NCBI GenBank assembly: GCA_002771135.1
Contig: PCXO01000005.1
Coordinates: 38,061-102,060 of the forward strand
Source: Candidatus Yanofskybacteria bacterium CG10_big_fil_rev_8_21_14_0_10_46_23
Lineage (GTDB): Bacteria > Patescibacteriota > Minisyncoccia > 2-02-FULL-40-12 > IGHO2-12-FULL-4
Direction of reading: 5' to 3'
Length of the DNA: 64,000 nucleotides
Position numbers and translations under genes: made by a program. Below the pieces are notes generated by a model. That model made no database searches. It saw nothing but the letters and a program-made list of their open reading frames with translations, and was not told the DNA's origin. The stretch's first letter is position 1. Every line of letters begins with the position of its first letter. Positions 38,858-42,897 of this stretch are shown in pieces.

Positions 38858-39799
38858 ATGAAGAAAAAAGAAAAAATTGACTTGCCGGAGAGTATTGCCA
38901 ATATAAATAATGATCAACCTATTTACTTTGAAAAAAATAGCTCCTCCCTAAAAGTTTTTGAAGTTGTAAATAATATTCTCGGACCATATGGCTACGAAGA
39001 AGTTTCCGCTGGTCAATTCAAACGTATTGCCGGTAGTTCGGCAAATTCATCTAACAAGATAGAAAATTTTGCGATCGGGAGGGGCTCAATTGCTCATGGA
39101 TTCACCCACCTACCAAATATTATTGAGTATTGCCAATCAATTATTGATAATTCTATTTTGGTTCCCTTAGAAGAAGTTATCAAGGAATTCAATTGGGCAA
39201 AAAAAGCAATCAATGAAAATTTTATAACACTCCATTCGAATGGAAAAATGAGATATGACATAGAGGCAATTATGGATATAACAAAAGGAATGTTAAACGA
39301 AGTCGCGTTTAAAATGGACTGCGAATCCTATGGGATCGATATAGAGCTAAATAGAGATTTTTATAAAGGAACTTCCAATACTGATGAGGGGCAGGATGTA
39401 AAAAGAGTAAGGTTTAACAAAAATAAGTTTGCTGAACCTAAAGTTAAAGTCCAAATAAAAGATGTCCAGTACTTTTTGTTGATTCCGAAAAATGAGTTTG
39501 GAGGAGATAGGCAGGCCGGTCTTTTTGTTGGGTATAGGGTTCATTGGAAAAAAGCGAATACAGGGCAAAGATTTTTTAGAAGTTTAGGCGGTCGTGGCGA
39601 AGAAATATTTTCAGATTTTCCTGTTTTGGGCGGTATCAGGGTAGAAAGAAGAGGTTGGGCGCTAAGAAGCGATTTTCAAAGCTTACCAGCTGGCACAGCA
39701 TCAAAAGGCATGAAATTTAATAACGACAATATGTTTGTTTATTGGGATAATTTAAGAAATATGGAAGAATTATTCCCAAAACTTTCAGATCTAATCTAA
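38858..39799 (+). CDS. hypothetical protein; candidate Type II restriction endonuclease partner of the convergent methyltransferase
   Basis: Very AT-rich; 3' end overlaps the 3' end of the C5-MTase gene by 9 nt in convergent orientation (classic R-M layout); no recognisable motif. Confidence 0.3.
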   Translation: MKKKEKIDLPESIANINNDQPIYFEKNSSSLKVFEVVNNILGPYGYEEVSAGQFKRIAGSSANSSNKIENFAIGRGSIAHGFTHLPNIIEYCQSIIDNSILVPLEEVIKEFNWAKKAINENFITLHSNGKMRYDIEAIMDITKGMLNEVAFKMDCESYGIDIELNRDFYKGTSNTDEGQDVKRVRFNKNKFAEPKVKVQIKDVQYFLLIPKNEFGGDRQAGLFVGYRVHWKKANTGQRFFRSLGGRGEEIFSDFPVLGGIRVERRGWALRSDFQSLPAGTASKGMKFNNDNMFVYWDNLRNMEELFPKLSDLI

Positions 39800-41350
39800 G
39801 CGCATTGCTTTTATTATTTGTCTTGCGACAGCCTTAACTACCGGGACTGTAACGGAATTGCCGATTTGTTTGTAGAGTGCCGAATCTGCAATTGCGGGTA
39901 ATTTATAATTGCTAGGGAAACCTTGAACACGTGCACACTCAAGTGGCGTTAGTTTTCTAATACCTTTTTCGTCTTTAATAATTGGCACATTGTGTCCGCC
40001 AGTCCCCATGTTGGCCGTAAGGGTGGGACAGACGCCTTTTTTATTTTCTCGAACATACTGTCGGCGCCATTGATAAACTCGCCCCTTGTCTTTTACAAAT
40101 TCTGCTAATTTCGGGAAAAGGGGCTTGTTGTTGTAGTAATATTTACTCCCAACATTTTTCTCAAGAATATCAGACATCGAAGTGGTGAGTGGCACGGGAT
40201 CGGGAAACTCAAAACAATCAGCATGTTTTTTGTTTTTAAATCCGACAATATATATCCTCTCTCTATTTTGGGGCACGTTGCCATACTCCATGCTATTGAG
40301 TACTTTTGCTTTTACATAGTAGCCGAGATTCACAAGTGTTTCCTTAATAATTTTAAAAGTCCTGCCATCGTCGTGACTTTTTAGATTCTTTACATTTTCT
40401 AGTAGAAATCCCCTCGGCTTTCTTGCCTCAATAATTCTGGCAATGTCAAAGAATAGGTTGCCACGATCTTTTTTGTCCCCAAAGCCTTCTCGGTAGCCAG
40501 CGATAGAAAAAGCCTGACAGGGGAAGCCACCCAGAAGAAAATCGAATTCTGGCAAATCATCAATGCCAATTTTTCGCACATCTTCCACAATAAGTTTTGA
40601 AGTTGGAAAATTGAGATCGTAAGTATATTTGCATTTAGGTTCAAAGTCATTTGCAAATACCGTATCAAACCCGGCGCTCTCAAAGCCGAGTCGGAGTCCG
40701 CCAATACCAGCAAACAAGTCTATTGTTTTGAATCCATTTTTTTCAATAACCGGGATTGTTTTAGGTTGTTTGTGGATTATTTTAATCAGTATCCCTCGAA
40801 TTTCTACTTCGCTCCGATAAATAGGTAAGTGGCTTTGGTTTGACGGTTGCAATCTAACGCGATCTTTTTCACGATATATTTTTTTTAGTGTAGCCTCATT
40901 GTTATCGATGATCGCTACCACAGTCTGTCCATTTTCTGCGACGGCTTGTTTTTTGATTACCACCGTGTCGCCATCGAAGATACCCTCGTCAACCATACTA
41001 TCTCCTGCAACTCGCAAAGCGTAATAGTAGGAATCTTTGTTGAGAAGACTGTTACTAACCGCCACGGTCGCATCAAAATTTTCAATTGCTTCGATAGGCT
41101 GGCCGGCAGCAATTATACCAACAATTGGAATTTCTGTTGTTTGCCGAATATTTAATCCTCTCGTAGAGTAATCATCCCTTGCGAGTAGTTTTTTTTCAAT
41201 TAAACCACCGATATGTTCATGGACAGTTGCCGGAGATTTAAGCCCAAACTTCTTTTGAATTTCATTGATTGTAGGGGATATGCCATTTTCTCGGATATAC
41301 CCTTCGATAAATGTATAAAGTTCTTGTTGTCGTTTTGTGAGAGTAGCCAT
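39791..41350 (-). CDS. LexA (S24 autoprotease repressor) - DNA cytosine-5 methyltransferase fusion protein
   Basis: N-terminus is a full LexA: wHTH (MATLTKRQQELYTFIEGYIRENGISPTINEIQKKF), Ala-Gly cleavage site (IIAAGQP), Ser (AGDSM) and Lys (ATLKK). C-terminus is a C5-MTase: motif I DLFAGIGGLRLGF, motif IV GGFPCQAFSIAG, motif VI ENV, motif X QIGNSV. Continuous ORF with no internal start. Confidence 0.8.
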   Translation of the reverse strand: MATLTKRQQELYTFIEGYIRENGISPTINEIQKKFGLKSPATVHEHIGGLIEKKLLARDDYSTRGLNIRQTTEIPIVGIIAAGQPIEAIENFDATVAVSNSLLNKDSYYYALRVAGDSMVDEGIFDGDTVVIKKQAVAENGQTVVAIIDNNEATLKKIYREKDRVRLQPSNQSHLPIYRSEVEIRGILIKIIHKQPKTIPVIEKNGFKTIDLFAGIGGLRLGFESAGFDTVFANDFEPKCKYTYDLNFPTSKLIVEDVRKIGIDDLPEFDFLLGGFPCQAFSIAGYREGFGDKKDRGNLFFDIARIIEARKPRGFLLENVKNLKSHDDGRTFKIIKETLVNLGYYVKAKVLNSMEYGNVPQNRERIYIVGFKNKKHADCFEFPDPVPLTTSMSDILEKNVGSKYYYNNKPLFPKLAEFVKDKGRVYQWRRQYVRENKKGVCPTLTANMGTGGHNVPIIKDEKGIRKLTPLECARVQGFPSNYKLPAIADSALYKQIGNSVTVPVVKAVARQIIKAMRLD

Positions 41351-41671
41351 ATATAAATATTTTATCCCGAAAACTACCCGAAAACTACAGCGAGTTGTCC
41401 ACACTCTATTCGACATCTTGTCTTTATTTAGTTAAAAAACAGGAGTAGTGTGGGCATAGAATACCTCGACATTCGATCTTAAAACTAGTAATAAAACTAA
41501 CGAGAGCGCTAGAGATTTTGCGGATTTGAGTACCGCTGATCAAAAGAAATTTCTGATTGAGTATTTGGATAAAAATCAGCTTTATGCAAATTTAAGCAAG
41601 ATTGAGGGTAGGGGATATCTGGTGAGCAAAGAGGGTATTAAATTAAACAAAGAATTCTATGAAGATTAATT

Positions 41672-42556
41672 ATGTGGGATAAAGTCGCAACTTTTTTAAG
41701 TTTTTCTGGTATTGAGGATAAAACGGTATGGCAAGATGTTATCCTTAGTTCTTTTTTGATACCACTAGTAATTTTTTTAGGGGTAAAACTTTCGAAATGG
41801 TGTAATAGTATTAGACCGTCAAGGTTAATTTTTAAAGATTATTTATCTAAAAATTCTTTTATTTATATATTTCATTCTCAGATGTCTGGCGCAGATGACG
41901 ATTGGAACTTTAATAAAAACCAAAAGTATATTGCGAGATATCCCGACCCAACTCCTACAGATTATGCTCATCTTGGGATCCAGAAAAAGCTAAATATTGA
42001 TCCGGTATCATCAGGGGCTGATAGTGAATGTGTTGCGGACATTTTTAATATTTTGGGGTTAATTCAAAAAACAAAAAATATTATTATTGGAGATCTGATA
42101 AATGATTGGAGCATTTGGTCAAAACCAATATTTTCAGTAGGTTTTAATCCAAAAACTAATAAACTTATCGAAAAATGCGACCCGATTTTTTTTGAATTAA
42201 GCGGAACTTCCTTAAAAGTAAAGAATACGAATATTAGTTATGGGTCTAATTTACCAGATGACGCCGGAGTAATACAAAAAACGATTGATAAAGATTCGGG
42301 GAACCCAGTTTTTATATTAGCGGGTATAGGTACTCTCGGAACAAGCGAGGCTGGCTTTATCTTGAAGAACAATTTTATTAAACTTGGGAAGCTTTTTGGG
42401 AATGATCCATTTTGCGTATTTTTAACAGTAAAAACTAATGAAGGCAAAAATTCAGCTTTAATAAGAAAAATTGTTCCCAGTCCCAAATGGTATCGAATTT
42501 TTATGTTTCCAATATTATATTTCAACTTTAAAAATAAAGATTTTTTTAAATACTGA
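41672..42556 (+). CDS. hypothetical protein with an N-terminal TM (AT-rich, island-associated)
   Basis: 294-aa ORF; no motif recognised. Confidence 0.4.
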   Translation: MWDKVATFLSFSGIEDKTVWQDVILSSFLIPLVIFLGVKLSKWCNSIRPSRLIFKDYLSKNSFIYIFHSQMSGADDDWNFNKNQKYIARYPDPTPTDYAHLGIQKKLNIDPVSSGADSECVADIFNILGLIQKTKNIIIGDLINDWSIWSKPIFSVGFNPKTNKLIEKCDPIFFELSGTSLKVKNTNISYGSNLPDDAGVIQKTIDKDSGNPVFILAGIGTLGTSEAGFILKNNFIKLGKLFGNDPFCVFLTVKTNEGKNSALIRKIVPSPKWYRIFMFPILYFNFKNKDFFKY

Positions 42557-42558
42557 TT

Positions 42559-42897
42559 ATGCTATACGACGAATTCAATTCATACAAAAACTTTGTCGGC
42601 GCTGATGTTTTCAAAAACAAGGCCACAGAAAAAACGGATATTTTGAAAAATCTTAATCCGGCTTTTCCGGTGCGCGAATATCAGAAAGAAGCGCTGGGAC
42701 GATTTTATTATTATGTTGAAGAATACCACCAGAAACAAAAGCCGATTCATTTGATGTTTAATATGGCGACCGGTTCGGGCAAGACGCTCATAATGGTCGC
42801 CAATCTTTTGTATTTTTATCAAAAGGGATACCGTAATTTCATTTTTTTACTCGCCTTGGCAACATTATCCAAAATAGAGGGGGGCGGGCAAATTTAG
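42559..42897 (+). pseudogene. truncated N-terminal fragment of an SF2 helicase / Type III (or Type I) restriction res-subunit-like protein
   Basis: REYQKEALGRF...PIHLMFNMATGSGKTLIMVANLLYF (helicase motif I and Q-like region), but the ORF ends after 112 aa. Confidence 0.5.

Follow-up and report, generated by a model that had tools for sequence, protein, structure and literature searches.

Type II restriction-modification (R-M) systems are known to be controlled by C proteins, by methylation of the promoter, and by short helix-turn-helix (HTH) domains fused to the methylase, and to our knowledge they are regarded as lacking a damage-responsive safety valve. The closest described relatives of the gene reported here are M.SsoII, M.Ecl18kI and M.EcoRII, which bind an operator in the methyltransferase promoter and repress their own gene (PMC3978073, PMC3695355, PMC12707154). 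For type I systems, restriction alleviation protects the cell from its own restriction enzyme after damage (PMC11109961, PMC12707154), and no type II equivalent is described in a review of R-M systems (PMC12707154). We analyzed a 64-kb stretch of DNA, hereafter the window (contig PCXO01000005.1 of assembly GCA_002771135.1, positions 38,061 to 102,060 of the forward strand), from Candidatus Yanofskybacteria bacterium CG10_big_fil_rev_8_21_14_0_10_46_23, in which a LexA protein is fused in frame to a C5-cytosine DNA methyltransferase. All coordinates given below are positions in the window.

Based on sequence comparisons, we consider it reasonably probable that the fusion is the methylase of a mobile type II cassette, its target probably being GCNGC, that its N-terminal LexA represses its own SOS promoter, and that RecA-stimulated self-cleavage would raise the methylase output. 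As in M.SsoII, M.Ecl18kI and M.EcoRII, a regulatory DNA-binding domain precedes a C5-cytosine methyltransferase, to whose N-terminus a flexible linker joins it. The first-pass annotation of the window had named R-M methyltransferases with short autoregulatory N-terminal HTH domains as a precedent, and these three enzymes are indeed such cases. In the M.SsoII type, however, the regulator is a Cro/434-type HTH of about 70 amino acids without a sensor, whereas the fusion carries a full LexA of about 195 amino acids with an intact cleavage site. The Cro/434-like N-terminus of M.SsoII (residues 1-71) is absent from the fusion, for which Pfam reports LexA_DNA_bind and Peptidase_S24 and not HTH_3. 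The M.SsoII-type operator is an inverted repeat between divergent methyltransferase (M) and restriction endonuclease (R) genes, whereas here it is a direct repeat that is very probably the SOS box of the lineage. The HTH of SsoII and Ecl18kI also activates the R gene, whereas the R gene is here convergent and has no operator.

The likeness to LexA itself (TIGR00498; PDB 1JHH, 3K2Z) comprises the domain order, the Ala-Gly site, the Ser/Lys dyad and a box that overlaps its own promoter. The direct-repeat box resembles that of LexA in Alphaproteobacteria, where the boxes are direct repeats with the same 11-bp period, GTTC-N7-GTTC (PMC4951493). Unlike standalone LexA, the fusion bears a C-terminal enzyme of 320 amino acids, lies within a mobile R-M cassette and has a LexA module that belongs to a separate clade. 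The first-pass annotation knew of no account of such an arrangement, and no description of a LexA-methyltransferase fusion was found in the literature searched. A mention in the 2017 work on the SOS response of Patescibacteria (doi 10.1111/1462-2920.13826) is possible; LexA does not appear anywhere in a 2025 review of the biology of R-M systems.

The fusion gene and its parts are located as follows.

39791 to 41350, minus strand: coding sequence of the LexA-C5-cytosine methyltransferase fusion, 519 amino acids plus stop, start set by the alignment of homologs
41156 to 41350, minus strand: LexA winged HTH, amino acids 1-65, with recognition helix ...ATVHEH... (Pfam LexA_DNA_bind, 5.6e-15)
41102 to 41107, minus strand: codons of the predicted scissile bond Ala82-Gly83, from the alignment to Ala84-Gly85 of E. 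coli LexA
40787 to 41128, minus strand: S24 autoprotease and dimerization domain, amino acids 75-188 (Pfam Peptidase_S24, 1e-28)
40997 to 40999, minus strand: codon of Ser118, inside the S24 domain
40883 to 40885, minus strand: codon of Lys156, inside the S24 domain
40733 to 40786, minus strand: variable, probably flexible linker, amino acids 189-206, with low identity and a low predicted local distance difference test score (pLDDT)
39809 to 40732, minus strand: C5-cytosine DNA methyltransferase domain, amino acids 207-514, with catalytic Cys278 (Pfam DNA_methylase, 1e-91)

A single unbroken open reading frame (ORF) extends from 39791 to 41416 on the minus strand, and the uninterrupted frame at 39791 to 41350 agrees with the continuity claimed in the first-pass annotation. 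The alignment with 28 homologs favors a start at the ATG at 41350 (MATLTKRQQ...). The public record for this protein, COV31_01170 (541 amino acids), begins at the upstream ATG at 41416; this start is disfavored, because the promoter, the LexA box and a DnaA-like box would then fall within the coding sequence. The domain order is LexA winged HTH, S24 autoprotease, a variable linker of 18 amino acids and C5-cytosine methyltransferase. The N-terminal 194 residues match the NCBIfam lexA equivalog TIGR00498 with 181 bits (cut-off 111), and the rest of the protein matches dcm (TIGR00675) with 335 bits. The LexA part aligns to the solved structures of E. coli and T. maritima LexA (about 1e-29), and Ala82-Gly83, Ser118 and Lys156 fall on Ala84-Gly85, Ser119 and Lys156 of the E. 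coli protein. For the methyltransferase part, the best PDB match is M.HhaI, which is matched along its entire length (8.7e-61). Motifs I (FxGxG), IV (PCQ), VI (ENV), VIII (QxRxR) and X (GNSV) of C5-cytosine methyltransferases occur in canonical order and are invariant among the homologs, and a target recognition domain (TRD) with a TL dipeptide is present. The AlphaFold (AF2) model consists of three folded units, with pLDDT below 50 for linker residues 195-203. All of the motif strings quoted in the first-pass annotation (IIAAGQP, AGDSM, ATLKK, FAGIGG, PCQ, ENV and QIGNSV) are found in the protein, and the absence of methionine from residue 120 to 353 supports its claim that the methyltransferase domain has no internal start.

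A search of 5.8 billion proteins yielded more than 120 distinct clusters at 90% identity that share the three-domain layout. These proteins, of about 525 amino acids, are 67-72% identical to the window protein and stem from many Patescibacteria lineages; clustering at 50% identity reduces the family to one representative. Relatives occur in at least 582 GTDB species representatives, and the loci of the best 80 were compared, among which 75 contain full fusions and 5 contain methyltransferase-only orthologues (68-71% identity). The search for homologous fusions proposed in the first-pass annotation thus revealed a widespread family rather than a one-off arrangement, and the same LexA module is also joined to other methyltransferases. 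In the databases these proteins are labeled "LexA" or "cytosine methyltransferase", the PGAP name being "transcriptional repressor LexA". Because the fusion recurs in more than 120 clusters and in 75 of the 80 GTDB loci, with the same in-frame architecture across independent assemblies, an assembly chimera, or the frameshift or stop between the domains that the first-pass annotation had feared, is excluded. An explanation in which two genes were joined by an error in sequencing or assembly, or in which the gene is a chimera of a prophage or island repressor with a methylase, has next to no probability in our judgment. The artefact is effectively refuted by the in-frame fusion in hundreds of independent assemblies, and the chimera is weighed with the flanking genes below.

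Residue conservation was calculated from 68 full-length fusion copies. Ala82, Ser118, Lys156 and Cys278 are present in all 68 copies and Gly83 in 67 of them. The mean pairwise identity is 56% for the winged HTH, 68% for the S24 domain, 23% for linker residues 195-206, 78.5% for the methyltransferase and 80% for its target-recognition region. The LexA module that was called complete in the first-pass annotation is indeed so and is apparently cleavable, and its cleavage chemistry appears to be under selection. A different reading is that the LexA module is a plain dimeric autorepressor, insensitive to RecA, which times M expression before R expression and uses its S24 domain for dimerization only. 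Autorepression by itself accounts for the position of the operator, fused HTH repressors that do not cleave themselves are a known precedent (PMC3695355, PMC3978073), and truncated LexA variants without the serine occur behind the same promoter at two metagenomic loci (L180 and L205). However, 67-68 of the 68 copies retain the Ala-Gly site and the Ser/Lys dyad, although the average pairwise identity of the LexA module is only 61%, and the independent fusions to other methyltransferases retain them as well. Pure dimerization is disfavored because it would not require conserved cleavage residues, and we judge this explanation to be unlikely.

The promoter elements of the fusion gene in the window are the following.

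41395 to 41403, minus strand: DnaA-box-like 9-mer TGTGGACAA; the consensus elsewhere is TGTGGATAA, the reverse complement of TTATCCACA
41366 to 41387, minus strand: predicted LexA operator, a perfect 11-nt tandem repeat of two copies of TAGTTTTCGGG, identified in the sequence
41367 to 41383, minus strand: operator core TTTCGG-N5-TTTCGG
41359 to 41364, minus strand: probable -10 hexamer TAAAAT, 8 nt upstream of the ATG, assigned by its position, which is equivalent to that of TATAAT elsewhere

In the family, the promoter consists of the DnaA-box-like 9-mer, a -35 element TTGnnn, the TTTCGG-N5-TTTCGG box in the spacer, TATAAT and a leader of about 35 nt; the window promoter would probably give a near-leaderless transcript. 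Counting a repeat when at least 10 of 12 positions match, the direct repeat, always with an 11-bp period and abutting the -10 box, was found in 54 of about 70 fusion loci. A TTTCTA variant of the repeat occurs in 9 loci, in a few the repeat lies in inverted orientation downstream of the -10 box, and the methyltransferase-only relatives do not have the TTTCGG repeat. The first-pass annotation had suggested looking for LexA-box-like palindromes in the region upstream of the gene (41351 to 41670). No convincing palindrome was detected in this region, where the inverted repeats are weak and the strong feature is the tandem direct repeat with its 11-bp period. The recognition helix S-T-[IV]-H-[EQ]-H pairs with CGG boxes (49 loci) and the helix S-T-A-H-[YH]-Y with CTA boxes (9 loci).

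Metagenome contigs were scanned for the combination of operator and -10 pattern, which gave at least 120 loci. Among the matches listed, 48 encode LexA joined to this C5-cytosine methyltransferase, 12 encode LexA followed by the contig end, and 15 encode LexA-like genes without this methyltransferase. Among the last of these are standalone LexAs, which are 197-208 amino acids long, 43-54% identical to the LexA module of the window and have the same recognition helix. In one case (L172), the genes after lexA are uvrB, recognized by its Pfam UvrB domains, and probably uvrA, identified by eye only. An operator private to the fusion was considered and rejected, since the same box lies ahead of the standalone lexA genes. 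Because it precedes standalone lexA genes, one of them beside uvrB, TTTCGG-N5-TTTCGG is very probably the SOS box of Patescibacteria. With the box of the fusion being that of standalone lexA genes, the M promoter would therefore be an SOS promoter, and the shared operator strengthens the predicted link between the fusion and the SOS response.

The DnaA-box-like 9-mer is found in exact form in 39 of 70 fusion promoters and with at most one mismatch in 53 of 70, as compared to a background of about 0.008 per 140 nt. It sits about 78 nt upstream of the fusion start in L001-L075 and is also present, at times inverted or shifted, upstream of standalone lexA genes (L163, L167, L172 and L186). This pattern suggests that DnaA or another factor may co-regulate lexA-type promoters in Patescibacteria. 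The 9-mer was also considered as a terminal repeat of the cassette, and this was rejected, since it is absent from the right end.

The LexA module with the same promoter also occurs on a different C5-cytosine methyltransferase (P0300/L161), on a D12-class N6-adenine methyltransferase (L192) and on an N6_N4 methyltransferase (L202/L260), and these fusions, too, retain the scissile Ala-Gly and the Ser/Lys dyad. A convergent abutting gene is also seen in L192 and L202. In L217, the module is joined to a C-terminal HTH_17 (excisionase-like) domain and there is no methylase. In a rough neighbor-joining tree, the modules of the D12 family group with those of both C5 families, and the standalone LexAs are sister to this clade; the N6_N4 and HTH_17 fusions branch off separately. 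The branching of the fused modules implies at least two independent fusion events and suggests shuffling of the module between methyltransferase families.

For the surroundings of the fusion, ORFs were called and clustered in the 80 loci and the window. In the window, the neighboring features are as follows.

38858 to 39799, plus strand: candidate restriction endonuclease of 313 amino acids, convergent with the methylase gene, which its 3' end overlaps by 9 nt
41526 to 41669, plus strand: remnant of a type III Mod gene, the last approximately 45 amino acids (PADLOC MTase_III, 1.5e-07, profile positions 657-700 of 708), at the left junction of the cassette
41672 to 42556, plus strand: ORF of 294 amino acids between the Mod and Res remnants
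42559 to 42897, plus strand: remnant of a type III Res gene, the first 112 amino acids (PADLOC)

The restriction partner that the first-pass annotation had imagined does exist. The gene directly 3' of the fusion is convergent in 71 of 75 loci and belongs to one of eight unrelated families of the restriction endonuclease type in 73 of 75. Pfam matched three of these families, RE_Bsp6I (26 loci, 1.4e-11), PDDEXK_5 (9 loci) and RE_NgoFVII_C, a C-terminal DNA-binding domain (8 loci, 1.7e-13), and returned no match for the other five; NCBIfam returned no names for the endonuclease families. The M and R genes abut, with a median gap of 0 nt, at most 10 nt in 67 of 71 loci and overlapping genes in 23, and the window genes are separated by neither a gap nor a terminator. 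No LexA box was found near the R genes in a position weight matrix (PWM) scan of the loci. The genes outside of the cassette differ from locus to locus. Thus, the adjoining endonuclease families, the abutting genes and the variable flanks identify the fusion as the methylase gene of a mobile type II R-M cassette.

A gene of 73 amino acids of the HTH_3 type, similar to C proteins, precedes the endonuclease gene in 15 loci, which recalls C-protein-controlled R-M systems; the window cassette has no C gene. Unlike in those systems, the C protein is optional in the fusion family and the LexA fusion is the constant regulator. A gene for Vsr, the T:G mismatch endonuclease that accompanies 5-methylcytosine methylases, lies divergently upstream of the fusion in 8 loci. 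The eight unrelated endonuclease families are partnered with one near-invariant methylase, the TRD of which is 80% identical. They are likely to be non-homologous isoschizomers that are exchanged beside a fixed M gene, which makes them a resource for new endonuclease families of the GCNGC type.

Because remnants of Mod and Res flank it, the window cassette can be placed in a wrecked type III R-M locus. The same Mod stub is located beside the fusion promoter in another locus (L005, 1985-2077), and its presence at two loci hints at a recurrent insertion site or at a common ancestry of the junction. The first-pass annotation had also raised a prophage repressor-methylase chimera, and this idea was not borne out. 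A few traits point in its direction: serine recombinases are found near a few fusion loci, and in L022 the fusion has a separate S24 repressor as well as genes of the terminase-like and serine-recombinase types as neighbors. However, there was no full fusion among the best 80 matches in the 2.9 million viral contigs of IMG/VR, the flanks are variable and mostly non-phage, and a high-scoring box was present solely at the gene's own promoter in the 80 loci and the window. The phage-like block of L022 (1-10000) also contains a ParB-like methylase and apparent caspase-like and TIR-like genes, all of the block having been judged by eye; its S24 repressor has a Cys-Gly site and is 32% identical to the LexA part of the fusion.

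The variable flanks also bear on another explanation, according to which the fusion is the host's own and sole SOS master repressor, with the methylase as a passenger or delivered to SOS promoters. In line with this, the module passes the LexA equivalog cut-off, carries the PGAP name of the repressor and shares its box with the standalone lexA genes of the lineage. Moreover, no standalone lexA was found in the window or the flanks of the 75 fusion loci, which sample approximately 1.5% of each genome. In these sequences there was also no uvrA or uvrB, and the sole match to a second lexA was the phage-like S24 repressor in L022. Because such a small part of each genome was sampled, the missing second lexA is uninformative. 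The unconserved flanks and the wrecked type III locus argue against this explanation and for a mobile accessory element gained by hosts that were already functioning. Furthermore, methyltransferase-only orthologues exist at 68-71% identity, and the fused modules form a clade apart from the standalone LexAs. Since the operator does not contain GCNGC, the SOS boxes would offer no substrate for targeted methylation. We therefore hold it improbable that the fusion is the host's only LexA.

The likely target of the cassette is GCNGC, as suggested by the partner endonuclease families, by related fusions of Bsp6I-type endonucleases with methyltransferases, and by the avoidance of GCNGC in the host DNA. 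M.Bsp6I recognizes GCNGC and M.NgoFVII recognizes GCSGC; methyltransferases related to the one in the window occur joined to Bsp6I-type endonucleases, and the family resembles Bsp6I/Fnu4HI-type (GCNGC) and NgoFVII (GCSGC) systems in having Bsp6I-like partners in 26 loci and NgoFVII-like partners in 8. Unlike in those systems, the same fused methyltransferase is paired with eight unrelated endonuclease families, and its specificity is deduced from sequence. Motif usage was compared for 32 motifs, namely 16 of the form XYNY'X' and 16 four-base palindromes. In the window, 68 GCNGC sites were observed as compared to 161 expected, an observed-to-expected ratio (O/E) of 0.42. In 1.14 Mb of pooled loci the O/E was 0.61. 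GCNGC had the lowest ratio of the 32 motifs, and when loci of 15 kb or more were ranked singly, it was first or second among the most depleted motifs in 30 of 40. The depletion was seen with all four central bases, and the one-mismatch neighbors were not depleted. The best PDB match suggested an HhaI-like GCGC specificity, which was rejected based on an O/E of 1.00 for GCGC and on the GCNGC/GCSGC type of the partner endonucleases; the match to M.HhaI lies in the catalytic core. The only GCNGC site within the M gene of the window is at 41102 to 41110 on the minus strand, where it is formed by the codons GCT GCC GGC for Ala-Ala-Gly at the LexA cleavage site, and the R gene of the window contains none.

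In the mechanism that we favor, the LexA part would dimerize through its S24 domain, and the dimeric fusion, together with any host LexA, would sit on TTTCGG-N5-TTTCGG in the spacer between the -35 and -10 elements of its own promoter and block RNA polymerase. As the fusion is predicted to bind its own promoter, the methylase would thereby repress its own synthesis, surging when the cassette enters a new cell and settling at a low steady level later. RecA filaments on single-stranded DNA would trigger the cut at Ala82-Gly83 in the fusion and in any host LexA; their source could be damage from outside, recombination or DNA uptake, or else the cassette's own endonuclease breaking DNA at sites that are not methylated. 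The cut would free the DNA-binding head of 82 amino acids and leave the S24-methylase body intact, the promoter would open, and more methylase would be made. Because the R gene is convergent, with no gap or terminator, the increased M transcription would run antisense into R. On balance, the M:R ratio would rise upon damage and self-restriction would be limited, a built-in type II counterpart of restriction alleviation. Type I alleviation, in contrast, depends on ClpXP proteolysis of HsdR or on control of assembly and involves no LexA-fused methylase, although the proposed outcome is alike.

The same architecture would also fit a suicide switch, in which cleavage upon damage or phage attack leads to proteolysis of the S24-methyltransferase fragment, methylation lapses and the stable endonuclease kills the cell, as in abortive infection or post-segregational killing. 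The LexA cleavage fragments of E. coli are protease substrates, and R-M systems kill when the methylase declines. However, the cleavage would at the same time derepress the promoter and increase the synthesis of new methyltransferase, the cut leaves the methyltransferase domain untouched, and death from ordinary damage seems costly for a cassette that is found in at least 582 species. We find a suicide switch quite improbable.

Several points weigh against a damage-responsive increase in methylase. Host LexA acting on the same box could keep methylase low in a naive cell, which is awkward for the establishment of the cassette, and degradation of the S24-methyltransferase fragment would give the opposite effect. 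The co-variation between helix and operator spans few clades and is phylogenetically confounded. The window promoter has a poor -35 element and almost no leader, unlike most loci. A PWM scan of approximately 1.27 Mb (the window and the flanks, about 20 kb per genome) identified high-scoring boxes solely at the fusion promoters, and neither the 64-kb window nor the approximately 1.2 Mb of flanks yielded a recA gene.

A broader proposal, which we put forward tentatively and hold to be possible though doubtful, is that R-M systems of Patescibacteria have repeatedly captured host LexA with its promoter, in at least two events and on four methyltransferase families. Breaks made by the endonuclease of the cassette, or the SOS signal, would cleave the fusion, boost methylation and silence R by antisense transcription, and the fusion would act in trans on the SOS set-point of the host. 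If true, type II systems would have their first equivalent of restriction alleviation, and host damage control would be tied to the retention of an R-M element. A methylase with a complete, conserved SOS sensor would link the DNA-damage response directly to epigenetic self-protection, in a design present in hundreds of species and seemingly reinvented on four methylase families. It would show LexA serving in nature as a regulatory module that is portable and cleavable, and the comparison supplies a probable SOS box for a large radiation of uncultivated bacteria.

A few further loci with the same promoter were observed in the metagenomic scan; their coordinates are given on the operator-oriented strand. 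In L252 (4990-7860), a standalone lexA is divergent from a cassette of a C5-cytosine methyltransferase, an R.HinP1I-like endonuclease (3.9e-89) and Vsr, with a LexA box inside the 113-nt intergenic region between lexA and the cassette. This arrangement is possibly an unfused precursor of the LexA-methyltransferase design. Truncated LexA-like ORFs of 121-125 amino acids, the winged HTH of which is near-identical to that of the fusions, were found in L180 (499-876), L205 and L194. The 125-amino-acid copies in L180 and L205 have Ala-Phe for Ala-Gly and GDHM for GDSM. In place of the pair of methyltransferase and endonuclease genes, these loci contain a large convergent gene, of 657-673 amino acids in L180 and L194 and split into ORFs of 387 and 277 amino acids in L205; L194 also contains a C-like gene. 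The operator matches in L215 and L245 were rejected as an artefact of a TTCGGTTATAAT tandem repeat. Both loci carry five tandem copies of TTCGGTTATAAT, which combines half a LexA box with a -10 hexamer, upstream of an ORF of 975 amino acids that is HsdR-like by eye.

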